64,000 nucleotides of DNA from GCF_988243305.1 NZ_OZ547136.1, one strand, 5' to 3'; positions 11,396-61,254 are shown, counted from the stretch's first letter. Translations and numbers: made by a program. Notes: generated by a model from the letters alone, not told the origin.

Positions 11396-11597
11396 ATCAT
11401 CACCCGCAAAAAAATGAGGCGCTATGTTAGCGCCTATGGTCAGCGGATTAAAGGTCTGCAAAGAGGGATTGCTGCAAACTGCAATCCCTCTCTATGCTTG
11501 ATGTATGCCTGAGTTCGCTGCTCATTGCGTAATACCGGGGAGCGAAAAAATAAGCGCTGATTTCTTAATGTGATCGGTAGCACGTTTTACGAATTAA

Positions 11598-30539: not shown

Positions 30540-31589
30540 ATGACGAATATCACCTTACAGAAACAACATCGTACACTGTGGCATTTTATTCCGGGGTTAG
30601 CCCTGAGTGCAGTTATCACCGGGGTCGCCCTGTGGGGTGGTTCCATTCCCGCGGTTGCGGGTGCCGGGTTTAGTGCCCTCACCCTCGCAATCTTGTTGGG
30701 GATGGTTTTAGGCAACACCATCTATCCGCACATCTGGAAAAGCTGTGACGGTGGCGTGCTGTTTGCCAAGCAATATTTATTACGTCTGGGTATCATTCTT
30801 TATGGCTTCCGTCTGACGTTCTCGCAAATTGCCGATGTCGGTATCAGTGGGATCATCATTGACGTGTTGACGCTGTCCAGTACCTTCCTGCTGGCTTGCT
30901 TCCTGGGGCAGAAAGTGTTTGGTCTGGATAAGCACACCAGCTGGTTGATCGGTGCCGGTAGCAGTATTTGTGGTGCTGCCGCGGTACTGGCGACTGAGCC
31001 GGTAGTGAAAGCGGAAGCCAGTAAAGTAACCGTGGCTGTTGCAACCGTTGTTATCTTCGGGACCGTGGCGATTTTCCTCTACCCGGCGATATATCCGCTG
31101 ATGTCTCAATGGTTTAGTCCGGAAACTTTCGGTATCTACATTGGTTCTACTGTGCACGAAGTGGCGCAGGTGGTGGCGGCAGGTCATGCCATCAGCCCGG
31201 ATGCAGAAAACGCAGCAGTTATTTCCAAAATGCTGCGCGTGATGATGCTGGCTCCGTTCCTCATCCTGCTGGCGGCGCGTGTTAAACAGCTGTCTGGGGC
31301 GAACAGCGGCGAGAAAAGCAAAATCACTATTCCGTGGTTTGCCATCTTGTTCATCGTAGTTGCCATCTTTAACTCGTTCCACCTGTTACCGCAGAGCGTG
31401 GTGAACATGCTGGTAACGCTGGATACCTTCCTGCTGGCAATGGCGATGGCGGCGCTGGGTCTGACCACTCACGTCAGCGCGCTGAAAAAAGCCGGGGCGA
31501 AACCTCTGCTGATGGCACTGGTACTGTTTGCCTGGCTGATTGTTGGTGGTGGTGCGATTAACTATGTGATTCAAAGCGTCATCGCATAA
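30540..31589 (+). CDS. yeiH: Inner membrane protein, UPF0324/YeiH family
   Basis: 349-aa polytopic protein, divergent from yeiE. Confidence 0.9.
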
Positions 31590-31603
31590 ACCACTACATC
31601 TTG

Positions 31604-31655
31604 CTCCTGTTAACCCGCTATCATTACCGTTTTCCTCCAGCGGGTTTAACAGGAG
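31604..31655 (+). promoter_or_regulatory. Long hairpin between yeiH and nfo whose 3-prime arm contains the nfo Shine-Dalgarno
   Basis: ctcctgttaacccgct ... agcgggtttaacaggag (about 16-bp arms, one bulge, 19-nt loop), ending 7 nt before the nfo ATG. Confidence 0.5.
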
Positions 31656-31662
31656 TCCTCGC

Positions 31663-32520
31663 ATGAAATACATTGGAGCGCACGTTAGTGCTGCTGGCGG
31701 TCTGGCAAATGCCGCAATTCGCGCCGCCGAAATCGACGCAACCGCGTTTGCCTTGTTCACCAAAAACCAACGTCAGTGGCGTGCCGCACCGCTCACGACG
31801 CAAACCATCGATGAATTCAAAGCCGCCTGTGAAAAATATCACTACACATCGGCGCAAATTCTTCCCCACGACAGTTATCTGATTAACCTCGGACATCCGG
31901 TCGCTGAAGCTCTGGAAAAATCGCGCGATGCGTTTATAGATGAAATGCAGCGTTGCGAACAGCTGGGGCTTTCTTTGCTCAACTTCCACCCTGGCAGCCA
32001 TCTGATGCAGATTTCAGAAGAGGATTGCCTTGCGCGTATTGCCGAATCCATCAACATTGCGCTGGATAAAACTCATGGTGTGACAGCGGTGATTGAAAAC
32101 ACCGCCGGTCAGGGCAGTAACTTAGGGTTTAAATTCGAACATCTCGCGGCGATTATCGACGGCGTTGAAGATAAATCCCGCGTCGGCGTCTGCATTGATA
32201 CCTGCCATGCTTTCGCTGCCGGGTATGATTTGCGTACTCCAGCCGAATGCGAGAAAACGTTCGCGGATTTTGCCCGTATTGTCGGCTTTAAGTATCTGCG
32301 CGGGATGCACCTTAACGATGCGAAAAGCACCTTTGGCAGCCGCGTTGACCGCCATCATAGCCTCGGTGAAGGCAATATCGGTCATGATGCGTTCCGCTGG
32401 ATCATGCAGGACGACCGTTTCGACGGCATTCCGCTGATCCTTGAAACCATCAACCCGGATATCTGGGCAGAAGAGATCGCCTGGCTGAAAGCGCAACAAA
32501 CTGAAAAAGCGGTAGCCTGA
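31663..32520 (+). CDS. nfo: Endonuclease IV (AP endonuclease)
   Basis: 285-aa product [39 protein letters not shown]... Confidence 0.97.
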
Positions 32521-32522
32521 AG

Positions 32523-33611
32523 ATGAACAACCGGGAGAAGGAGATCCTTGCAATTTTACGGCGTAACCCGCTGATTCAGCAGAACGAAATTGCGGATATG
32601 CTGCAAATCAGCCGTTCGCGCGTTGCGGCGCATATTATGGATTTAATGCGCAAAGGCCGGATTAAAGGCAAAGGTTACATTCTCACCGAGCAGGAATACT
32701 GCGTAGTGGTGGGGACAATCAATATGGATATTCGCGGGATGGCGGATATCCGTTACCCGCAAGCGGCTTCTCATCCCGGTACCATTCATTGCTCGGCAGG
32801 CGGCGTTGGACGCAATATCGCCCACAATCTGGCGCTGTTAGGCCGCGACGTCCATTTGCTTTCAGTGATTGGCGATGACTTTTATGGCGAAATGCTCCTG
32901 GAAGAAACGCGCCGCGCCGGCGTGAATGTCTCCGGCTGCGTTCGTTTACATGGCCAAAGCACATCGACGTATCTGGCAATTGCCGATCGAGACGATCAAA
33001 TCGTGCTGGCGATTAACGATACCCATCTGCTGGATCAGTTGACACCGCAACTACTGAACGGGTCGCGCGATTTACTTCGTCATGCGGGCGTGGTACTGGC
33101 TGATTGCAACCTGACAGCCGAGGCGCTGGAGTGGGTCTTTACCCTCGCTGATGAAATCCCGGTGTTTGTCGATACCGTTTCAGAATTCAAAGCGGGCAAA
33201 ATCAAACACTGGCTGGCGCATATTCACACCCTGAAACCCACTTTACCGGAGCTGGAAATTTTATGGGGACAGGCGATCACCAGCGATGCTGACCGTAATG
33301 CCGCAGTGAATGCGTTGCATCAGCAAGGCGTTCAGCAACTGTTTGTTTATTTGCCCGATGAGTCTGTTTATTGCAGCGAAAAGGATGGAGAACAATTTTT
33401 GCTGACAGCGCCAGCGCATACGACAGTAGACAGTTTTGGTGCTGACGATGGTTTTATGGCGGGCCTGGTATATAGCTTTCTGGAGGGAAACAATTTCCGT
33501 GACAGCGCCCGTTTTGCGATGGCCTGCGCGGCAATTTCACGCGCCAGCGGCAGCTTAAACAACCCTACCCTGTCTGCCGATAATGCGCTGTCATTAGTGC
33601 CAATGGTGTAA
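32523..33611 (+). CDS. yeiI: PfkB-family carbohydrate/nucleoside kinase with N-terminal winged-helix DNA-binding domain
   Basis: 362-aa product; N-terminus MNNREKEILAILRRNPLIQQNEIADMLQISRSRVAAHIMDLMRKG, then ribokinase-like domain. Confidence 0.9.
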   Translation: MNNREKEILAILRRNPLIQQNEIADMLQISRSRVAAHIMDLMRKGRIKGKGYILTEQEYCVVVGTINMDIRGMADIRYPQAASHPGTIHCSAGGVGRNIAHNLALLGRDVHLLSVIGDDFYGEMLLEETRRAGVNVSGCVRLHGQSTSTYLAIADRDDQIVLAINDTHLLDQLTPQLLNGSRDLLRHAGVVLADCNLTAEALEWVFTLADEIPVFVDTVSEFKAGKIKHWLAHIHTLKPTLPELEILWGQAITSDADRNAAVNALHQQGVQQLFVYLPDESVYCSEKDGEQFLLTAPAHTTVDSFGADDGFMAGLVYSFLEGNNFRDSARFAMACAAISRASGSLNNPTLSADNALSLVPMV

Positions 33612-33616
33612 CAATG

Positions 33617-33652
33617 TTGCCGGATTCGACGCTTGACCGCATCTAATCCGGC
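33617..33652. repeat. Palindromic element between yeiI and nupX
   Basis: ttgccggattcgacgcttgaccgcatctaatccggc imperfect inverted repeat. Confidence 0.5.
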
Positions 33653-33666
33653 TCATAAATTGCACA

Positions 33667-34917
33667 CTACGCTAAACCAATAAAGAACCCGGCAATGGTG
33701 GCACTCATCAGATTAGAAAGTGTCGCCGCCGCCAGCGCGCGTAAACCAAGCTGGGCGATTTCCGGCGCACGGTGTGGCGCAACCGCAGAAAACGCCCCCA
33801 CCACCACCCCGATAGAACCAAAGTTAGCGAAACCGCACAACGCGAAAGAAATAATCGCCACGGTTTTAGCATCCAGAGTGCCAGCTGTTTGCAGATAAGG
33901 TGAGAAATTGAGGTAAGCGACAAATTCATTAATCGCCAGTTTCTGTCCAATCAAACTCCCGGCAAGATTCGCATCACTCCAGTCAACCCCCATCACCCAC
34001 GCCAGCGGGGCCAGCAGGTAACCTAAAATGGACTCCAGCGAGGCATGTTCAAAACCAAACCAGCCGCCAACGCCGCCGATAATACCGTTAATTAACGCAA
34101 TGATGGCGACAAATGCCATCACTACTGTCGCCACACCTGCGGCGATTTTCAGCCCGGTCATTGCCCCTGTAGCGGCGGCTTCAATAATGCTTTTTGGCGG
34201 TGTTTCGGTGAAAGAGAGGTTATTAAAGGAAACCTGCGAAGATTCGGTAGCCGGGCTTAACAGGCGGGCAAACAAGATCCCGCCAGGGATCGCCATTAAC
34301 GATGCCGCCAGCAGATATTCCACAGGCACGCCCAGTGCAGCGTAACCAATCATTGTCGAACCAGCAATCGAGGCCATGCCACTACAAATCGCTGTAAATA
34401 ATTCATTGCGATTCAGCCGATCGATAAAGGGTTTGACGATTGCCGGAATTTCGTTTTGCCCGAGGAAAATGGTAGTGACCGCGACGAATGACTCGATCTT
34501 GCTGATATTTAATGCTTTCTGGAAGATACCGCCGAGAATGCGAATTAAGATCCCCATCACACCGATGTAGTAGAGAATACTCACCAGTGCTGTAACGAAG
34601 ATAATTGCCGGTAATACCCTGAAACCAAAGATAAATCCTGCGCCATCAAATAAGGTATCCATTTTCGGTCCGACCAGAGAACCAAAGATAAATGCGCTAC
34701 CTGCATCGCTGTACGCCATCACTTTATGCACGCCAAAAGCGACTTTTTCTGCGACCCAACGCCCTGGTGGTAACCAAAGCATAATGCCGCCAATCACGAC
34801 CTGTAACACTAACGCCGCGCCAACGGTACGCAGGCTGATCTTCTTCTTGTTTACTGACAGCAAAAACGCAATTGCCAGTAATACCACCATTCCCAGAACA
34901 CTTCTCATGACATCCAT
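33667..34917 (-). CDS. nupX: Concentrative nucleoside transporter (CNT/NupC family)
   Basis: 416-aa product MDVMRSVLGMVVLLAIAFLLSVNKK...; close paralogue of psuT in this window. Confidence 0.9.
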   Translation of the reverse strand: MDVMRSVLGMVVLLAIAFLLSVNKKKISLRTVGAALVLQVVIGGIMLWLPPGRWVAEKVAFGVHKVMAYSDAGSAFIFGSLVGPKMDTLFDGAGFIFGFRVLPAIIFVTALVSILYYIGVMGILIRILGGIFQKALNISKIESFVAVTTIFLGQNEIPAIVKPFIDRLNRNELFTAICSGMASIAGSTMIGYAALGVPVEYLLAASLMAIPGGILFARLLSPATESSQVSFNNLSFTETPPKSIIEAAATGAMTGLKIAAGVATVVMAFVAIIALINGIIGGVGGWFGFEHASLESILGYLLAPLAWVMGVDWSDANLAGSLIGQKLAINEFVAYLNFSPYLQTAGTLDAKTVAIISFALCGFANFGSIGVVVGAFSAVAPHRAPEIAQLGLRALAAATLSNLMSATIAGFFIGLA

Positions 34918-35016
34918 AGTTATTATCTCTTCATGTCATTTTGGGCGACGGCTTTCTGCCCATCAGAAATAGCCGGGCCTGCATCTTGCGATACTGTCCC
35001 GGCTTGTTATCAACAC

Positions 35017-35958
35017 TTAATGGGTTTTGATGTAGCCGCGCACGCACTCTTCGACTAATCCCCAGAACCAGTCGGTATCAATAGTGATGCCGACTTTGGT
35101 ATTGGCGGGCTTGCCAAGAACGCCCAGCTCGTCGCAGACGGTACGCCCATAGCAAGGGCCACTGTTAACGTCCACGTCGACGTACATCTCCTGGGTTTTA
35201 ATGCCATCAGGGTTAATCAGATAACCGATGCAGGTGGCGTCATGCACCGGGCCGCCAGCAAGGCCGTAGTTTTCGAACTGCGTTTTGAGAGTGAAGTTCA
35301 TGATGTCGCTGAACAGCTCTCCGGCGGGGCCGCCTGCCCTTTCCATCCGTGCAATCACGTCCGGGGTGCAAACGGTCTGGTTGGTGAGATCGAGGCCCAT
35401 CATCACTAATGGAACGCCGGAGGTGAACACCACGCGTGCCGCTTCCGGGTCAGCAAAGATGTTGAACTCGGCGGATGGCGTAAAGTTGCCAGTACCGTAA
35501 GCGCCGCCCATCAGCACAATTTCACGGATTTTCGGCAGGATCGCGGGTTGCATACGCATTGCCACCGCGATGTTTGAAAGTGGACCAACCGGCACCAGAG
35601 TGATATCGCCATCGCTTGCCATCAGGGTATCGATGATATATTTCACCGCATGAGTGCTTTCTGCCTGGCGGGTCAGCGGCCCGAATACCGGGCCATCAAG
35701 TCCGGTTTCACCGTGAATATTATCGGCAACGATTTGTTGACGCATAATGGGCTGTGGCATCCCCGCATAAACCGGAACATTAATCTCCAGTTTCTGGCAA
35801 ACATTCAGGCCATTAATTAATGTTTTATCGAGGGTTTGATTACCCGCTACAATGGTGATACCTAATAAATCTATTGCCGGATGTTTCGCTGCCATCATTA
35901 TTGCAATAGCATCATCATGACCCGGATCACAATCCAGGATAATTTTTCTTTTTTCCAT
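35017..35958 (-). CDS. rihB: Pyrimidine-specific ribonucleoside hydrolase
   Basis: 313-aa product [27 protein letters not shown]... (IU-nucleoside hydrolase DxDxxxDD motif). Confidence 0.95.
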
Positions 35959-36126
35959 TGTTTATTTCCTCTGTTTCCAGTTGCGTTATTTTTTCTACAG
36001 CAAAGAAAATTCGACCGGGCCGATGATTGAATCTTAACAACAGCGTACGTATGCTAAATATGAGAAATCTCATAGCGGATAAACATCGTGAAAGAAATCC
36101 ACAATAATGATCTTAAGCAGCAATTG

Positions 36127-36786
36127 ATGAGTGAATCAGCGTTTAAGGATTGCTTTTCAACGGATGTTTCAGCCGATACGCGGCTGTTTCATTTTTTAGC
36201 GCGTGACTACATTGTGAAGGAAGGGCAACAGCCGTCCTGGCTGTTTTACCTGACGCGAGGCCGCGCCAGGCTTTACGCCACGCTTGCTAATGGTCGCGTG
36301 TCGCTGATCGATTTCTTTGCCGCGCCCTGTTTTATTGGCGAGATTGAGTTAATCGATAAAGACCATGAACCGCGTGCGGTGCAGGCTATTGAAGAGTGTT
36401 GGTGTCTTGCGCTCCCTATGAAACATTACCGCCCGCTGTTATTAAACGACACACTATTTTTACGAAAACTCTGCGTTAGTTTAAGCCATAAAAATTATCG
36501 CAATATTGTTTCTTTAACTCAGAATCAATCATTTCCGTTAGTGAATCGCCTGGCAGCTTTTATATTACTCTCACAAGAAGGTGATCTTTATCACGAAAAG
36601 CATACGCAAGCGGCAGAGTATTTAGGCGTTTCTTATCGACATCTTTTATATGTTCTCGCGCAATTCATTCACGACGGTTTATTAATTAAAAGCAAGAAAG
36701 GATATCTAATTAAAAACAGAAAGCAGTTGTCAGGACTGGCGCTGGAGATGGACCCGGAGAATAAATTCTCCGGGATGATGCAGTAA
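36127..36786 (+). CDS. yeiL: CRP/FNR-family transcriptional regulator
   Basis: Product [37 protein letters not shown]..., cNMP-binding-like domain plus C-terminal HTH; 219 aa. Confidence 0.85.
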
Positions 36787-36807
36787 AAAATAATCTGCAA
36801 TAGCACG

Positions 36808-36849
36808 ATTGCCGGATGTGACGCTTAATAAGCGCGTACATCCGGCAAT
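36808..36849. repeat. Palindromic REP-like element between yeiL and psuT
   Basis: attgccggatgt...acatccggcaat inverted repeat. Confidence 0.55.
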
Positions 36850-36854
36850 GACAC

Positions 36855-38105
36855 TCAAGCTAAACCAATAAAGAACCCGGCAATGGTCGCGCTCATCAGG
36901 TTGGAAAGCGTTGCTGCTGCCAGCGCCCTTAAACCAAGCTGAGCGATTTCCGGAGCACGTTTTGGCGAAATAGCCGAAAATGCCCCAACGACAACACCGA
37001 TAGAACCAAAGTTAGCAAAACCACAAAGCGCAAAGGAGATAATCGCAATGGTTTTCACTTCCAGCGTGCCGCCCGTTTGCAGGTATGGGGAGAAACTCAG
37101 GTAAGCGACGAATTCGTTAATCGCCAGTTTCTGCCCAATCAGGCTACCCGCAAGGTTGGCATCACTCCAGTCCACACCCATGATCCACGCCAGCGGTGCC
37201 AGCACATAGCCAAAAATACTTTCCAGAGAGGCATTGGCGAAACCAAACCAGCCGCCAATTCCGCCGATAATGCCGTTGATCAGCGCAATAATTGCGACAA
37301 ACGCCATTACCACCGTCGCTACACCAGCGGCGATTTTCAGCCCGGTCATCGCACCGCTCGCCGCCGCTTCGATAAAGCTTTTTGGCGGCGTTTCGCTGAA
37401 CGACAGATTTTCAAATGTCACCTGCGAAGGCTCGGTGGCTGGGCTAAGAATACGTGCAAACAAAATACCACCAGGGATCGCCATCAGCGATGCCGCTAAC
37501 AGGTAGTCAATTGGTACGCCCATTCCGGCATAACCAATCATCATCGAACCAGCAATGGACGCCATCCCGCTACAAATTGCGGTAAACAACTCGTTGCGAT
37601 TCATGCGATCGATAAACGGTTTAACGATCGCAGGGATCTCATTTTGCCCGAGGAAAATAGTGGTAACCGCAACAAAAGATTCGATTTTGCTGATGTTGAG
37701 GGCTTTCTGGAAAATGCTGCCAAGGATGCGGATTAGCAGCCCCATCACGCCAATGTAGTACAGCAGGCTGATGAGCGCAGTGACGAAGATAATCGCCGGG
37801 AGTACGCGAAAGGCGAAGATAAAGCCCGCGCCATCAAACAGGACATCCATTTTCGGCCCGACCAATGAACCAAAAATAAAGGCACTACCGGCATCACTGT
37901 AAGACATCACTTTATGAACGCCTAATGCCGCCTGCTCTACCGCCCATTTTCCTGGTGGAAAATAGAGCATGATGCCGCCAATGGCGATTTGTAGCAGCAG
38001 CGCGGCTCCAACCGTGCGCAAACTGATGCTCTTTTTATTCACTGACAACAAAAATGCTATTGCCAGTAACACCACCATCCCCACAACACTTCTCATTATA
38101 TCCAT
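36855..38105 (-). CDS. psuT: Putative pseudouridine/nucleoside transporter (CNT family)
   Basis: 416-aa product MDIMRSVVGMVVLLAIAFLLSVNKK...; paralogue of nupX. Confidence 0.9.
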   Translation of the reverse strand: MDIMRSVVGMVVLLAIAFLLSVNKKSISLRTVGAALLLQIAIGGIMLYFPPGKWAVEQAALGVHKVMSYSDAGSAFIFGSLVGPKMDVLFDGAGFIFAFRVLPAIIFVTALISLLYYIGVMGLLIRILGSIFQKALNISKIESFVAVTTIFLGQNEIPAIVKPFIDRMNRNELFTAICSGMASIAGSMMIGYAGMGVPIDYLLAASLMAIPGGILFARILSPATEPSQVTFENLSFSETPPKSFIEAAASGAMTGLKIAAGVATVVMAFVAIIALINGIIGGIGGWFGFANASLESIFGYVLAPLAWIMGVDWSDANLAGSLIGQKLAINEFVAYLSFSPYLQTGGTLEVKTIAIISFALCGFANFGSIGVVVGAFSAISPKRAPEIAQLGLRALAAATLSNLMSATIAGFFIGLA

Positions 38106-38198
38106 AATGATTTTCCCTTCATGCCAGTAAACCCGGCGTCAGCGCCAGGTTTTGGTATGTATGATCAGTACGGGCGACGGCTTTCTGCCCGTCAGAAA

Positions 38199-39137
38199 TT
38201 AACCCGCGAGACGCTGGTATTCTTTGGCAATTTCACTCGCCAGAATGGCGTTGTTGAACACCAGTTGGATGTTGGATTTCAGGCTGTCACCGCCAGTCAG
38301 TTCAGCAACACGAGCCAGCAGGAACGGTGTGCTTTCTTTACCAATAACGCCCTGCTCTTCGGCTTCGGCAACGGCTTGATCTATGGCTGCATTGATAGAT
38401 TCCTCCGGCATCGCAAACTGTTCCGGGATCGGATTTGCCACCACCAGGCCACCGTTCAGCCCGCTTTGCCATTTCACCGCCATTGCATGGGCAATTTCAC
38501 TGGCGCTGTCGAGACGAATACTGACGTCAAACGGGCTGGTACGGCAGAAAAACGCAGGCAGCGCTTTGGTCTGATAGCCAATTAACGGCACACCGAAGGT
38601 TTCTAAATACTCAGTGGTTAATCCTAAATCGAGAATAGATTTCGCCCCGGCACAAACAACGGTGACATTAGTATTTGCCAGTTCTTGCAAATCGGCAGAA
38701 ATATCGAAGGTATGTTCCGCCCCGCGATGCACACCACCAATTCCCCCTGTGGCAAATACTTTAATTCCGGCAAGCGCCGCAATAATCATCGTTGAAGCAA
38801 CGGTAGTTGCGCCATTTTTTCCGGCGGCAACAACAAAAGGTAAATCGCGACGACTAACTTTGGTCACGTTATGCCCTTCACGACCCAGCAATTCAATTTC
38901 TTCTTTGCTTAAACCCACTTTCATCACGCCGCCAATAATGGCGATAGTGGCAGGTACAGCGCCCTGTTTACGAATAGTTTCTTCAACTTCAATTGCGGTC
39001 TGGGCATTTTGTGGGAACGGCATCCCGTGAGAAATAATGGTCGATTCCAGCGCCACAACCGGTTTTTTGTTTTTTAAAGCGTCCTGCACTTCCGGGGAAA
39101 TTTGTAATAATTCAGGGGAAATTTTTAATTCAGACAT
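38199..39137 (-). CDS. psuG: Pseudouridine-5-prime-phosphate glycosidase
   Basis: 312-aa product MSELKISPELLQISPEVQDALKNKKPVVALESTIISHGMPFPQN... Confidence 0.95.
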   Translation of the reverse strand: MSELKISPELLQISPEVQDALKNKKPVVALESTIISHGMPFPQNAQTAIEVEETIRKQGAVPATIAIIGGVMKVGLSKEEIELLGREGHNVTKVSRRDLPFVVAAGKNGATTVASTMIIAALAGIKVFATGGIGGVHRGAEHTFDISADLQELANTNVTVVCAGAKSILDLGLTTEYLETFGVPLIGYQTKALPAFFCRTSPFDVSIRLDSASEIAHAMAVKWQSGLNGGLVVANPIPEQFAMPEESINAAIDQAVAEAEEQGVIGKESTPFLLARVAELTGGDSLKSNIQLVFNNAILASEIAKEYQRLAG

Positions 39138-40066
39138 TCTGCGTTCTCCACTAACGATATAACGTTGGCAATCGATAAATCGGGGTTATTGGTGTATTCA
39201 CAGGAGAGCGCCATTGACGAACATCCCTGTGCGAAACGAACAGATTCGGCAAACGGCATTCCGTCTACCCAACACGAAGCAAGCCCCGCCATCATGGCAT
39301 CGCCCGCTCCGGTAACATTAATAACATTGGTTTTGATCGGCGCAGACCAGCCACTTTCACCGCTGATATCACTGTAATAAACGCCATCGCCGCCCATGCT
39401 CAATACCAGTCGGTTCAGGCCATGTTGATGGAACCAGGCAGCAACTTTTGCCACATCTTCACGCCCTGACAGCGCAATCCCACTCAGGGTTTCCGCTTCA
39501 AGGCGGTTTGGCTTGAGAGTGTGGATTTGATTTAGACGGTCGCGCACTTTGACACATTTCCATGCGGAAACCGGATCGACAAATACGGGTACGTTGGCGG
39601 CATTATCCAGAATCCATGCCAGTGCCTCTTCACTGATATTACAGTCTGCGACAATGACCTTTGCCCTCTGAATAAATTCACGGTGCTGTGCGAGATATTC
39701 AGCTGTAATAGCGTTGCTAATATTCATGTCATTTATAGCAACCAGCATTTCACCGGTATTATCGAGTAATGATAAATAGCTTGACGTATTTTCTCCCGGC
39801 ACAATCAGGCATTTATCGACATAAACGCCAGATTGATTGGTTTGCGTTAGCAGCGATTGACCATAAAAATCACTGCCTACGGCGCTCAGTAGCCAGGCTT
39901 TGTTCTCCAGCAACGCCAGGTTTTGTGCAATATTGCGCCCGACTCCACCAGGCGTAAATTTTATTTTACCTGGATTTGAATCCGCATAATTTAATGATTC
40001 ATGTGAATATCCGGCGACATCAATATTCGCCGAACCTATAATTACGACATAATCCTTTTCGCGCAT
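39125..40066 (-). CDS. psuK: Pseudouridine kinase (PfkB family)
   Basis: 313-aa product MREKDYVVIIGSANIDVAGYS...; 13-nt overlap with psuG. Confidence 0.95.
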   Translation of the reverse strand: MREKDYVVIIGSANIDVAGYSHESLNYADSNPGKIKFTPGGVGRNIAQNLALLENKAWLLSAVGSDFYGQSLLTQTNQSGVYVDKCLIVPGENTSSYLSLLDNTGEMLVAINDMNISNAITAEYLAQHREFIQRAKVIVADCNISEEALAWILDNAANVPVFVDPVSAWKCVKVRDRLNQIHTLKPNRLEAETLSGIALSGREDVAKVAAWFHQHGLNRLVLSMGGDGVYYSDISGESGWSAPIKTNVINVTGAGDAMMAGLASCWVDGMPFAESVRFAQGCSSMALSCEYTNNPDLSIANVISLVENAECLN

Positions 40067-40305
40067 AGCACGTCCTCTGGTAAAAAATTACCACCCCTGT
40101 CAATCCACAAGAATATTGATACTGCAAAGACGGTTTAAACATGTGTTCATATTTAAACATGTGCTCATAGTATGCATGTTTTACGTAAAGTAAATTACCG
40201 CCAGAGAGGCAAAATGGGCAGATTTGAGCAGGCTCACAAAACGCGATTAAATGCCTGAATTATAAAAACGGGGAATTTGTGACGGGATGCACAGAACAGG
40301 AACAA

Positions 40306-40333
40306 TAAAAAAGGGCAGAAATTAATCTGCCCT
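40306..40333 (-). terminator. Intrinsic terminator downstream of fruA (fruBKA operon end)
   Basis: agggcagaaattaatctgccct hairpin followed by a T6 run on the minus strand; a second hairpin acagggcaggaaatttctgccctgt lies at about 40452-40476. Confidence 0.6.
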
Positions 40334-40489
40334 TGAGGAAATAACCTTAGTGTTTGATGAAGGTTTCAGGTTTCTACTAAAAGATAAAACCATTTAAATT
40401 CATAAAATTACATTCACAAACCGGTCATTCTCTTTGCGCGCATCAAATGTTACAGGGCAGGAAATTTCTGCCCTGTAACACACCTTTTA

Positions 40490-42181
40490 TTACGCTGCTT
40501 TCGCTACTGCGTCCACTTCCGGACGTTTCAGGAAGGCATAGGCCAGACCCGCCACCAGCGTACCGGCAATAATGGCTACCAGGTAACCCAATACCGGCGT
40601 AATCGCGCCAGGGATCAGCAGAACAAACAGACCACCGTGCGGTGCCATCAGTTTCGCACCAATCGCCATTGAGATTGCGCCAGTCAGCGCCCCACCCACG
40701 ATACAGCACGGCAGCACACGCATCGGATCACGGGCAGCAAACGGAATTGCACCTTCCGAAATAAAGCACAGTCCCAGTACCAGAGCGGCTTTGCCCCCTT
40801 CCTGCTGCGCTTTGTCGAATTTGCGACGCGCCACCATTGTTGCCAGGCCCATTGCCAGCGGTGGCACCATACCTGCCGCCATAATCGCCGCCATCGGGCC
40901 ATAGGTTTGAGTACTCAGCAGACCCACACCGAACGCGTACGCTGCTTTGTTTACCGGACCGCCCATGTCAGTACACATCATGCCACCGAGGATCGCCCCC
41001 AGCAGAACCGCATTCGCAGTCCCCATGGTCTGCAGCCAGTGAGTCAACCCTTCGAGAATGCCAGCAACCGGTTTACCGATCAGATAGATCATCGCCAGAC
41101 CGACCACCAGACTGGAAATTAGCGGAATGATCAGAATCGGTTTCAGCGCCTCCATACTCTGCGGCAGTTTCAATTGCGTACTGATTAACTTCGCAATGTA
41201 ACCAGCCAGGAAGCCCGCAATAATACCGCCAATGAAGCCAGAACCGGTGCTGACCGCCAGCATACCGCCAATCAGACCCGGCGTGAGACCCGGACGATCG
41301 GCAATGGAAAAGGCAATATAACCTGCCAGTACCGGCACCATCAACGCAAAGGCTGAACCACCACCAATCTGCATCAGCGCCGCAGCCAACGTACCCGGCT
41401 CTTTAAACGCTTCGATACCAAAAGCAAAAGAAAGCGCGATACACAGACCACCTGCAACGACCATCGGCAGCATGTAAGAGACGCCCGTCAGCAAGTGACG
41501 GTAAGCGCCTGCACTCTCTTTCTTACCTTCAGTGGTCGCTGTTTGAGTTTTGCCCGCCGGTTCATACGGCGTTGCTTCAGCAACCGCTTTATCCAGTTCC
41601 TGCGCGGTTTTCTTCAGCGCCAGACCGGTAGAGGTGCGATACATCGGTTTACCAGCAAATTTCGCCAGATCCACTTCAATATCTGCCGCCACAATCACCA
41701 GATCCGCTGCGGCTACTTCTTCAGGGGTGATTGCATTACCCGCGCCAACCGAACCACGGGTTTCAACTTTCACCCACCAGCCACGTTTTTTCGCTTCGGT
41801 TTCAATGGCTTCAGCCGCCATAAAGGTGTGTGCTACGCCAGTCGGGCAAGCAGTCACCGCAACTACGCGTTTCGGACCGCTGGCGGCAACCGGTGCTGTC
41901 GCAGCGACCGGCGCAGTGTAAGGTTTCGCATGGCCTTTGGCTTCACTCAGGAACAGCTCAGGGTGCGCAACTGCCCGGGAAATATCGCCCAGCCAGACAT
42001 TTTTACCGTTCAGCGCGCTGTCGTTCGGGATGGAATCACCGAGAACAATCGCCATTTCAGCGTCGTTCGGATTGTCGATGATTTCCAGTTTTGCTTTTCG
42101 CGCCGCCGCGCCCAGCAGGGTCTTCGCCATATAGGCGCGTGCCTGACCGAGATTAGCGTCAATAATCAGCAGCGTTTTCAT
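40490..42181 (-). CDS. fruA: Fructose PTS enzyme IIB'BC
   Basis: 563-aa product MKTLLIIDANLGQARAYMAKTLLGAAARKAKLEII... Confidence 0.97.
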   Translation of the reverse strand: MKTLLIIDANLGQARAYMAKTLLGAAARKAKLEIIDNPNDAEMAIVLGDSIPNDSALNGKNVWLGDISRAVAHPELFLSEAKGHAKPYTAPVAATAPVAASGPKRVVAVTACPTGVAHTFMAAEAIETEAKKRGWWVKVETRGSVGAGNAITPEEVAAADLVIVAADIEVDLAKFAGKPMYRTSTGLALKKTAQELDKAVAEATPYEPAGKTQTATTEGKKESAGAYRHLLTGVSYMLPMVVAGGLCIALSFAFGIEAFKEPGTLAAALMQIGGGSAFALMVPVLAGYIAFSIADRPGLTPGLIGGMLAVSTGSGFIGGIIAGFLAGYIAKLISTQLKLPQSMEALKPILIIPLISSLVVGLAMIYLIGKPVAGILEGLTHWLQTMGTANAVLLGAILGGMMCTDMGGPVNKAAYAFGVGLLSTQTYGPMAAIMAAGMVPPLAMGLATMVARRKFDKAQQEGGKAALVLGLCFISEGAIPFAARDPMRVLPCCIVGGALTGAISMAIGAKLMAPHGGLFVLLIPGAITPVLGYLVAIIAGTLVAGLAYAFLKRPEVDAVAKAA

Positions 42182-54949: not shown

Positions 54950-56044
54950 ATGGGCGCTTATCTGATTCGCCGTCTGTTGCTGGTGATCCCAACGTTATGG
55001 GCGATTATCACTATCAACTTTTTCATCGTGCAAATTGCGCCTGGCGGTCCGGTCGACCAGGCCATCGCCGCCATTGAGTTTGGTAATGCCGGAGTATTAC
55101 CCGGCGCAGGCGGTGAAGGTGTTCGCGCCAGCCATGCGCAAACGGGCGTCGGCAATATCAGCGACAGTAATTACCGTGGCGGACGCGGATTAGATCCAGA
55201 AGTGATCGCCGAGATCACTCATCGCTACGGTTTCGATAAGCCGATCCACGAACGTTACTTCAAAATGCTCTGGGACTACATCCGCTTTGATTTTGGCGAC
55301 AGCCTTTTTCGCAGCGCCTCGGTACTGACGCTGATTAAAGATAGTCTGCCGGTTTCCATCACCCTCGGATTATGGAGCACGCTGATTATCTATCTGGTGT
55401 CGATTCCGTTAGGCATTCGCAAAGCTGTTTATAATGGTAGCCGCTTTGACGTCTGGAGTAGTGCATTTATCATCATCGGCTACGCCATTCCGGCCTTTTT
55501 GTTTGCCATCCTGCTGATTGTCTTCTTCGCGGGCGGCAGCTATTTCGACCTGTTCCCTCTACGCGGCCTGGTTTCCGCTAACTTTGATTCGCTGCCGTGG
55601 TATCAGAAAATCACCGATTATCTGTGGCATATCACGCTGCCGGTGCTGGCGACAGTGATTGGCGGCTTTGCGGCGCTGACCATGCTGACAAAAAACTCAT
55701 TCCTTGATGAAGTGCGCAAGCAATACGTGGTGACCGCCCGTGCGAAAGGGGTAAGTGAAAAAAATATTCTCTGGAAACATGTGTTCCGCAACGCCATGCT
55801 GCTGGTGATTGCCGGTTTTCCGGCGACGTTTATCAGCATGTTTTTTACCGGCTCGCTGCTGATTGAGGTGATGTTTTCACTCAATGGTCTTGGCTTACTG
55901 GGCTACGAAGCGACCGTCTCGCGCGATTATCCTGTAATGTTTGGTACCTTGTATATTTTCACCCTGATTGGCCTGCTGCTGAATATTGTCAGTGATATCA
56001 GCTATACGCTGGTCGATCCGCGTATAGATTTTGAGGGACGTTAA
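54950..56044 (+). CDS. yejB: ABC transporter permease
   Basis: 364-aa permease immediately after yejA. Confidence 0.95.
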
Positions 56045-60558: not shown

Positions 60559-61254
60559 TTAGACGACGCTGGCAATTTCTTCTTCAGTTAACGGACGATA
60601 TTCACCGGGGGCTAAATCAGCATCCAGCGTAATGCCGCCAATACGTTCACGATGCAGCTCAACCACATGGTTACCCACGGCGGCGAACATACGTTTCACC
60701 TGATGATAACGCCCTTCGCTGATGGTCAAACGAACCTGCGTTGGGGTAATCACTTCCAGCACCGCCGGCTTAGTGAGATCTTTTTCGTTATGCAGCTGCA
60801 CGCCTTTAGCAAATTGCTCTGCCGTATCGTCAGCTACGGGTGATTCCAGCGTCACCAGATAGGTCTTCTCGCAATGATGGCGCGGAGAAGTAATGCGGTG
60901 CGACCACTGACCATCATCTGTCATTAGTACCAGACCGGTGGTATCGATATCCAGACGCCCTGCGGCGTGCAGTTTCCACGCTACCGGTTCATCCAGAAAA
61001 TAGAGCACCGTTGGGTGATCAGGGTCGTCCGTGGAGCAAACATAGCCCTGAGGCTTATTGAGCATGAAGTAACGTGGACCGTGTTGCTGCGCCAGCGGGT
61101 TGCCATCGTAAGCGACATCATGTTCAGGGAGCAGTTTGAACGCTGCATTACGGACGATTTCGCCATCGACGGTGACACGATTGCCGCGGATTTCACGCCC
61201 GGCAATAGCACGGCTAACGCCGAGTTGCTGTGCGATAAATTTATCAAGTCGCAT
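60559..61254 (-). CDS. rsuA: 16S rRNA pseudouridine(516) synthase
   Basis: Product [36 protein letters not shown]... (S4 domain plus PSU synthase); 231 aa. Confidence 0.95.

Follow-up and report, generated by a model that had tools for sequence, protein, structure and literature searches.

Several regulators are fused to enzymes or derived from them, such as BirA, NadR, and the ROK repressors Mlc and NagC, the counterparts of the ROK sugar kinases; the regulator paralogues of the ROK family are without catalysis. The riboflavin kinase/regulator RbkR joins a DNA-binding domain to an enzyme domain of the same pathway, with the substrate of the enzyme acting as the signal (PMC5397151). The YeiI protein of Escherichia coli resembles RbkR-type regulators in this layout but has a PfkB fold and a modified nucleoside as the proposed signal, and it is known here from its sequence and a structural model. 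Its gene lies in a 64,000-nucleotide stretch of DNA (GCF_988243305.1, NZ_OZ547136.1), the whole of which is called the window here and from the first letter of which all positions are counted. Positions 32523 to 40066 contain seven open reading frames, yeiI, nupX, rihB, yeiL, psuT, psuG, and psuK of E. coli, exactly where a first-pass annotation of this DNA had placed them. Computational comparisons of sequence, synteny, motifs, and residues, together with a predicted structure, suggest that YeiI is probably a pseudouridine-responsive repressor of psuKGT whose kinase activity has been weakened or lost. The block as a whole is best explained as two systems of different origins, a pseudouridine system and an inserted rihB-nupX-yeiL unit. 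What the analysis adds is a specific function proposed for yeiI; the genes are known, and the reading of the block as modules in the first-pass annotation is partly right.

YeiI is listed as uncharacterised in PMC9061257 (2022) and PMC12506659 (2025), and a survey from 2025 rejected a machine-learning call of "pseudouridine kinase" for yeiI, offering no alternative. A literature search returned no paper tying YeiI, or a pseudouridine kinase (PsuK) fused to an N-terminal helix-turn-helix (HTH) domain, to regulation and none characterising the HTH-fused PsuKs that head psu operons. PMC6698644 names "YeiI" as a LysR-type regulator, evidently in error for YeiE.

The closest described enzyme is PsuK of E. 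coli (YeiC; PDB 7VKP, 7VTD, and 7VVA), which shares with YeiI the fold, the ribose and base contacts, the Ser/Asn/Lys triad, and the catalytic Asp. In contrast to PsuK, YeiI has an extra winged-helix domain of 53 residues, TXXE in place of NXXE, GADD in place of GAGD, and no GXXG loop. The yeiI gene (32523 to 33611, + strand) encodes the winged helix in residues 1 to 48 (bases 32523 to 32666), matched by the Pfam family HTH_24 with an E value of 1.2e-10 (41.2 bits against a cutoff of 21.9), and the PfkB domain (PF00294, E = 3.4e-67) in residues 58 to 348 (bases 32694 to 33566). The AlphaFold2 model of YeiI, with a predicted local distance difference test (pLDDT) score of 90.9, shows helices at residues 3 to 14, 20 to 27, and 31 to 43, followed by a β-hairpin as the wing, ahead of the kinase fold, in agreement with the N-terminal winged helix reported by the first-pass annotation. 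The kinase domain of the model superimposes on the crystal structures of E. coli PsuK with a template modeling (TM) score of 0.95 and a root mean square deviation of 1.8 Å. Residues 54 to 359 align with PsuK at 40% identity (E = 2e-77), and the earlier description of the two kinases as more distant paralogues is borne out at 40% identity. YeiI remains below the cutoff of the PsuK equivalog NF007355 (261 bits, cutoff of 540) and matches an equivalog of its own, NF007416, named "sugar kinase."

The residues that contact pseudouridine in the PsuK crystals (PMC9061257) are all kept in YeiI, namely, N14 and D16 for the ribose and S30, Y97, N112, N143, and K170 for the base (PsuK numbering), as is the catalytic D256. 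The hallmark base recognition triad of Ser/Thr30, Asn143, and Lys170, as defined in PMC9061257, together with N14 and D16 corresponds to S83, N196, K223, N67, and D69 of YeiI and is found clade-wide. Among 49 positions conserved in at least 85% of 177 canonical family members, 39 are kept in the YeiI clade and 7 are systematically replaced (D29, M114, N187, A191, G225, G228, and G255), with the substitutions including N187T, A191L, and G255D as well as D29A and M114T near the base pocket. The GXGD motif of the PfkB family, in which we take G255 to be the anion-hole glycine, reads GADD in YeiI: the Asp is kept, the Gly is replaced by Asp in 23/23 clade members, and G255D occurs in 0 of ~110 other HTH-bearing cluster representatives. 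The NXXE motif, containing N187 as a putative Mg2+ site (PMC9247573), reads TLPE, with Asn replaced by Thr in 22/23 clade members and the Glu retained. The GXXG small ATP-binding loop, defined by G225 and G228 (PMC9247573), is lost in the clade, with E, D, or K at the first position and S or A at the second. Retained ligand contacts combined with altered phosphotransfer machinery are what one would expect if an enzyme had become a sensor. Ratios of nonsynonymous to synonymous substitution rates (dN/dS) of 0.05 to 0.08 for yeiI and 0.02 to 0.04 for its HTH, similar to that of psuK, indicate that YeiI is under strong purifying selection, with no decay.

The winged-helix-plus-PfkB architecture is widespread. 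Searches with YeiI and PsuK return 768 representatives at E < 1e-30, and the N-terminal domain is present on ~110 of the best 150 representatives. The HTH-fused PsuKs of Yersinia, Serratia, Pasteurella, Shewanella, Clostridia, and other taxa resemble YeiI in the two-domain architecture, in the type of operator upstream of the psu genes, and in the near-invariant HTH residues R31, S32, A35, K44, and G45. They differ in that they keep all catalytic motifs and are cotranscribed with psuG, whereas YeiI is encoded by a separate convergent gene, has altered motifs, and has an HTH-less PsuK alongside. In Yersinia, Pasteurella, and Shewanella, the fused gene and psuG form an operon, with the fused gene in front and, in most cases, a CNT transporter gene behind. 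A synteny scan with one genome per species returned 80 loci, and in all ~66 loci outside the YeiI clade with enough flanking DNA, from beta- and gammaproteobacteria, Clostridia, Spirochaetes, and Lutibacter, the fused gene is followed directly by psuG. Judged from these loci, the HTH-fused form is the common form of pseudouridine kinase, and E. coli PsuK is the version without the HTH. A few other HTH-PfkB relatives have independently lost motifs, and two of them, P0052 from Phytobacter and P0103, are without the nucleoside contact residues or the catalytic Asp. In Xenorhabdus (loci L027 and L028), a second HTH-PfkB copy has no psuG next to it. Members of this family seem to have departed from the enzyme role repeatedly.

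A palindrome, AAACAnnTGTTT, is located upstream of psuK or the fused gene. Enumeration of 5-n-5 palindromes gives it as the top de novo motif in 5/5 independent lineages, a number reached by 0/200 shuffles, and with one mismatch at most, it occurs in 31/69 upstream regions, compared to 1.1 expected and a shuffle maximum of 4. In the fused operons, the palindrome lies 20 to 35 bp before the start codon and is often paired at a distance of 18 to 19 bp. The region upstream of the HTH-less psuK in nine YeiI-carrying Enterobacteriaceae contains a −35 element, TTTACT, a −10 element, TAnnAT, and two sites 18 bp apart, with variable flanks. The corresponding predicted promoter in the window (40167 to 40194, − strand), placed by phylogenetic footprinting, comprises the −35 hexamer TTTACT (40189 to 40194), a 16-nucleotide spacer, and the −10 hexamer TACTAT (40167 to 40172). 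Predicted operator 1, GAGCACATGTTT (40155 to 40166, − strand), directly follows the −10 hexamer at 18 bp from predicted operator 2 (40137 to 40148, − strand), which reads GAACACATGTTT on the gene strand and lies 71 to 82 nucleotides before the psuK start codon. The segment from 40120 to 40200 corresponds to positions 2259350 to 2259430 of K-12 (NC_000913.3). A terminator-like hairpin after fruA (40311 to 40334, − strand) separates fruBKA from the psuK promoter.

The form of the operator tracks the recognition helix of the kinase. Proteins with an xHIM helix, YeiI included, are associated with AAACA sites in 17/21 cases and with AAGCA sites in 0/21, and the clostridial proteins with a VHI(S/T) helix are associated with AAGCAnnTGCTT in 13/35 cases. 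The kinase HTH is the only DNA-binding domain conserved beside the palindromes across phyla, which argues that this domain binds them and that YeiI would do so in E. coli. The palindrome by itself is not enriched in the window as a whole (6 sites compared to 2.8 expected); where the sites lie and how well they are conserved make up the signal, rather than their number. The coding region of yejB contains another exact copy of GAACACATGTTT (55775 to 55786), probably a chance match. The palindrome was not found before yeiI, rihB, nupX, or yeiL, including at loci where yeiI has an upstream region to itself, and autoregulation of yeiI was rejected for want of an operator-like site upstream of that gene. 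The proposal in the first-pass annotation of a self-regulating kinase with an undefined substrate is thereby refined: the sites stand before psuK instead of yeiI, and the protein keeps the contacts for pseudouridine with altered phosphotransfer motifs.

The arrangement of yeiI in other genomes connects it to the pseudouridine genes. At YeiI clade loci outside E. coli, yeiI is convergent with psuT-psuG-psuK in 9/9 cases, and rihB, nupX, and yeiL are missing in 8/9. E. albertii, three Citrobacter species, Enterobacter, and Leclercia show nfo-yeiI followed by convergent psuT-psuG-psuK, with one transporter and neither rihB nor yeiL; Affinibrenneria, a Salmonella island, and an E. coli plasmid carry the yeiI-psuTGK block without nfo; and a Klebsiella-like contig has the same seven-gene layout as E. 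coli. YeiI is always accompanied by an HTH-less, fully canonical PsuK. The plasmid and Salmonella cassettes have this promoter and these tandem sites before psuK as well. As a separate observation, these compact four-gene cassettes of yeiI and psuT-psuG-psuK, on plasmid p98228 (L095, 3878 to 8188) and in the Salmonella island (L009, 10001 to 14315), are flanked by transposase, toxin-antitoxin, and phage-like genes. Within E. coli, ~989 genomes carry a haplotype of the block with 80 to 90% identity, and in strain NE88, the one genome of these ~989 that was examined, nupX is reduced to a 66-bp remnant (L093, 3692 to 3757), with yeiI, rihB, yeiL, and psuTGK intact. The layouts in other genomes and in NE88 show that yeiI travels with psuTGK and not with rihB-nupX.

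These layouts bear on the earlier proposal that YeiI is a self-regulating kinase for an undefined nucleoside working with NupX and RihB as a second module paralogous to psuKGT. In E. coli, these three genes are neighbors, the D29A and M114T replacements might shift specificity, and the substrate range of NupX differs from that of PsuT (PMC11241209). However, yeiI starts 2 bp past nfo on the + strand and is oriented toward nupX, and yeiL is oriented away from rihB and toward psuT, so that yeiI-nupX-rihB and yeiL-psuT-psuG-psuK do not hold as transcription units. Nor do the proposed members co-occur across genomes: yeiI is found without rihB and nupX in eight lineages or elements, always beside psuTGK, and NE88 has lost nupX and kept yeiI. 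Furthermore, RihB splits its substrate into base and ribose without any need for a nucleoside kinase, the surroundings of yeiI, nupX, and rihB contain no operator-like site, and the phosphotransfer motifs of YeiI are degraded. A kinase module of YeiI, NupX, and RihB is therefore highly improbable.

Phylogenetic analyses place YeiI among the fused kinases. In neighbor-joining trees with 200 bootstraps and Clostridia plus Spirochaetes as the outgroup, the YeiI clade is recovered in 200/200 and the HTH-less PsuK clade in 195/200 replicates, and both group with the fused kinases of Enterobacterales, Pasteurellales, and Gilliamella (190/200). This analysis replaced a midpoint-rooted tree in which the position of YeiI was ambiguous. 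The internal topologies of the YeiI and PsuK clades have 6/8 clades in common, which points to coinheritance since one duplication. The fused kinase of Yersinia shows 59% identity with PsuK compared to 48% with YeiI, and in the same comparison YeiI and PsuK share 38%, making YeiI the faster-evolving copy.

Several observations weigh against YeiI as a pseudouridine-responsive repressor whose kinase function is weakened or gone. YeiI retains the catalytic Asp, E190, and D164, and its kinase-like domain is constrained to the same degree as psuK; since the catalytic Asp survives, residual kinase activity is possible. The changes at D29 and M114 near the pocket mean that the ligand could be a relative of pseudouridine. 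YeiI is the direct sister of PsuK in 0/200 trees, which leaves the timing of the duplication uncertain, with long-branch effects as a possible cause of this placement. The retained D256, E190, D164, and nucleoside contacts and the strong purifying selection on the kinase-like domain would also suit a YeiI that is still bifunctional, an active, perhaps low-flux second pseudouridine kinase as well as a repressor of psuKGT, like the ancestral HTH-PsuK and the fusions with fully canonical motifs that head psu operons in most taxa. Against this unlikely case stand the clade-fixed changes at N187, both GXXG glycines, and G255, the last matched in none of the other representatives, and the constant presence of a canonical HTH-less PsuK. 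A psuK mutant is unable to use pseudouridine (PMC12506659), which argues that YeiI does not replace PsuK.

Further points against the repressor concern the psuK promoter. A consensus promoter scan missed it, with 8/12 positions compared to a threshold of 9; the psuK transcription start is a prediction only, at a place where the simple scan made no call. During evolution in the mouse gut, an identical A>C change arose in the psuK/fruA spacer of 5/7 mice at older K-12 position 2257444 (PMC9509342). The change likely turns the psuK −35 element (positions 2259419 to 2259424 of K-12 NC_000913.3) from TTTACT to TTGACT, an up-mutation, where the mapping rests on our own estimate of an offset of ~1978 bp between the older and the current K-12 sequences; so mapped, it independently supports the predicted promoter position. 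Gut evolution repeatedly inactivates the repressor genes frlR, dgoR, and srlR, whereas the psu locus shows this one recurrent promoter single-nucleotide polymorphism and no yeiI knockouts are reported (PMC9509342). Loss of function would be expected to hit a simple repressor often, yet such knockouts are missing; one possible explanation is that the gut already supplies pseudouridine, leaving the strength of the promoter as the limiting factor. The weak −35 element and adaptation by its up-mutation instead of yeiI loss would equally suit another factor binding the psuK palindromes or YeiI acting as an activator or regulating elsewhere, with the linkage of yeiI and psuKGT due to shared ancestry only. 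This is improbable in view of the kinase HTH as the only conserved DNA-binding domain beside the sites, the agreement between site variant and recognition helix, the position of the sites just downstream of the −10 element, which is typical for repressors, and the joint movement of yeiI and psuTGK on a plasmid and an island. YeiL was also considered as a psu regulator and rejected, as yeiL is missing from most yeiI-psuTGK loci.

For a repressor YeiI, the following course of events is proposed. As it does in most bacteria, the pseudouridine kinase would at first have carried an N-terminal winged helix, its gene heading a psuK-psuG(-psuT) operon with a palindromic operator in front. The fused gene may have been duplicated in an ancestor of the Enterobacteriaceae and some Pectobacteriaceae, after which one copy would have lost the HTH and remained an enzyme as psuK, and the other, yeiI, would have kept the HTH and the nucleoside pocket, fixed the phosphotransfer changes, and relocated to the far end of the operon. 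A YeiI dimer on two sites of the AAACAnnTGTTT type over the psuK transcription start would block transcription. Pseudouridine triggers a Ser30-dependent conformational change in PsuK (PMC9061257), and its binding to the kinase-like domain of YeiI could cause a similar Ser-mediated domain closure as seen in the E. coli PsuK crystals (PMC9061257), altering the spacing of the two HTHs and releasing the DNA. Expression of yeiI is probably constitutive from the nfo region; genomic systematic evolution of ligands by exponential enrichment (SELEX) places an RpoD holoenzyme site between nfo and yeiI (PMC3946193). The inserted unit, rihB-nupX with the divergent regulator gene yeiL, would serve the uptake and hydrolysis of uridine and cytidine.

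A bolder version of this proposal, which we regard as conceivable but somewhat more doubtful than an even chance, sees YeiI as a silenced pseudokinase, a pure pseudouridine sensor-repressor that arose from the splitting of a bifunctional HTH-PsuK. The HTH-PsuKs, with several hundred clusters at 50% identity across Proteobacteria, Clostridia, and Spirochaetes, would then form a large family of one-component regulators coupling the catabolism of modified nucleosides to their availability via the AAACAnnTGTTT/AAGCAnnTGCTT operator. yeiI is an E. coli K-12 gene still without a function, and the analysis offers a specific, testable assignment with a 30-bp target and a candidate ligand. If the assignment is true, YeiI would be the first regulator of modified-nucleoside catabolism in bacteria and a clean case of one enzyme-repressor giving rise to a separate enzyme and sensor, and the recurrent adaptive change at the psuK promoter in the mouse gut would be explained. 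The repressor/operator pair could also serve as a biosensor in strains producing pseudouridine for mRNA production.

The second system of the block comprises rihB (35017 to 35958, − strand), which encodes a pyrimidine-specific ribonucleoside hydrolase and heads the rihB-nupX unit; nupX (33667 to 34917, − strand), which encodes a nucleoside transporter of the CNT family; and yeiL (36088 to 36786, + strand), which encodes a CRP/FNR family regulator with the Pfam domains cNMP_binding and HTH_Crp_2. yeiL is missing wherever rihB-nupX is missing. A palindrome, TATGAGAAATCTCATA, at 36059 to 36074 immediately precedes the start of yeiL in the divergent region between rihB and yeiL and is a candidate site for a regulator.

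NupX and PsuT are 88% identical over all 416 residues without gaps, as high a similarity as the first-pass annotation had described. Both contain three CNT domains and exceed the TIGR00804 cutoff for NupC/CNT transporters (500 and 518 bits compared to 442). Their genes show 79% DNA identity and 53.5% identity at third positions, with dS of ~1.27, dN of 0.076, and even divergence, values that indicate an old duplication under strong constraint and speak against both gene conversion and a duplication of recent date. Where other genomes have a single transporter, it groups with PsuT; the duplication lies within the Enterobacteriaceae, and nupX is the old duplicate of psuT. The reported substrates differ: NupX carries uridine and cytidine weakly and PsuT carries neither (PMC11241209), and deletion of psuT blocks pseudouridine uptake (PMC13090712). 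NupX fits RihB through its transport of uridine and cytidine, the nucleosides then being hydrolyzed without a kinase.

The pseudouridine pathway, which the first-pass annotation rightly recognized as a known one, is encoded by the tight unit psuK-psuG-psuT on the − strand. psuK (39125 to 40066) encodes the kinase without an HTH and with canonical NXXE, GXXG, and GAGD motifs; psuG (38199 to 39137) encodes the pseudouridine-5′-phosphate glycosidase and overlaps psuK by 13 bp; and psuT (36855 to 38105), for a CNT family transporter, is the last gene. PsuG cleaves a nucleotide, pseudouridine 5′-phosphate, and not a nucleoside, which corrects the wording that each module has a nucleoside-cleaving enzyme. 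RihB (IU_nuc_hydro) and PsuG (Indigoidine_A) belong to unrelated Pfam families, and the supposed gene-for-gene paralogy of the modules extends to the transporters and kinases but not to these two enzymes. The similarities among the block proteins are not chance effects.

The spacer between psuG and psuT contains two conserved hairpins on the − strand, in which four pairs show compensatory changes in ten Enterobacteriaceae and for which no Rfam match was found. Hairpin 1 (38171 to 38191; CGGGC AGAAAGCCGTC GCCCG) has a 5-bp stem and a conserved 11-nucleotide loop. Hairpin 2 (38129 to 38152; AAACCTGGCG CTGA CGCCGGGTTT), with a longer GC-rich stem flanked by runs of A and T, looks like an internal terminator or attenuator. 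Hairpin 1 alone also occurs before nupX, in the rihB-nupX spacer (34942 to 34962, − strand; TGGGC, 11-nucleotide loop, and GCCCA), which indicates that the duplication included it. An RpoS holoenzyme peak inside psuG, upstream of psuT, at older K-12 coordinate 2255672 in genomic SELEX (PMC5493296) hints at an internal stationary-phase promoter for psuT. An inverted repeat resembling a repetitive extragenic palindrome (REP) lies between the convergent yeiI and nupX (33619 to 33652). A search for known RNA families over positions 31500 to 41000 gave a single subthreshold chance match.

At the gene level, the content of the block is ordinary and already annotated. The identity of the seven genes to annotated E. 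coli chromosomes reaches 99.0%, and 5,361 of 5,426 complete E. coli genomes contain the block at a coverage of at least 80%. It is unusually polymorphic within the species, with 95 to 99% identity in 2,584 genomes, 90 to 95% in 1,857, and 80 to 90% in 989, and certain alleles of yeiI have diverged too far to be matched by megablast. When the window is compared with E. albertii, Nfo shows 98.6% identity and YeiI only 84%, and this break in identity at the nfo/yeiI junction suggests an allele replacement by recombination.

The window also contains the pyrimidine genes named in the first-pass annotation (cdd, preTA, rihB, psuKG, and dusC), interspersed with unrelated genes; cdd, preT, preA, dusC, and rsuA show 98 to 99% identity to an annotated genome. 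The rsuA gene (60559 to 61254), which that annotation did not list, encodes the 16S rRNA pseudouridine-516 synthase and lies ~20 kb from the pseudouridine operon. In the closest E. coli genome, GMF065, dusC and yohJ have a 6-kb gentisate/3-hydroxybenzoate cluster between them (L008, 21272 to 27346), and the window is without the cluster at the corresponding position (11453 to 11562).

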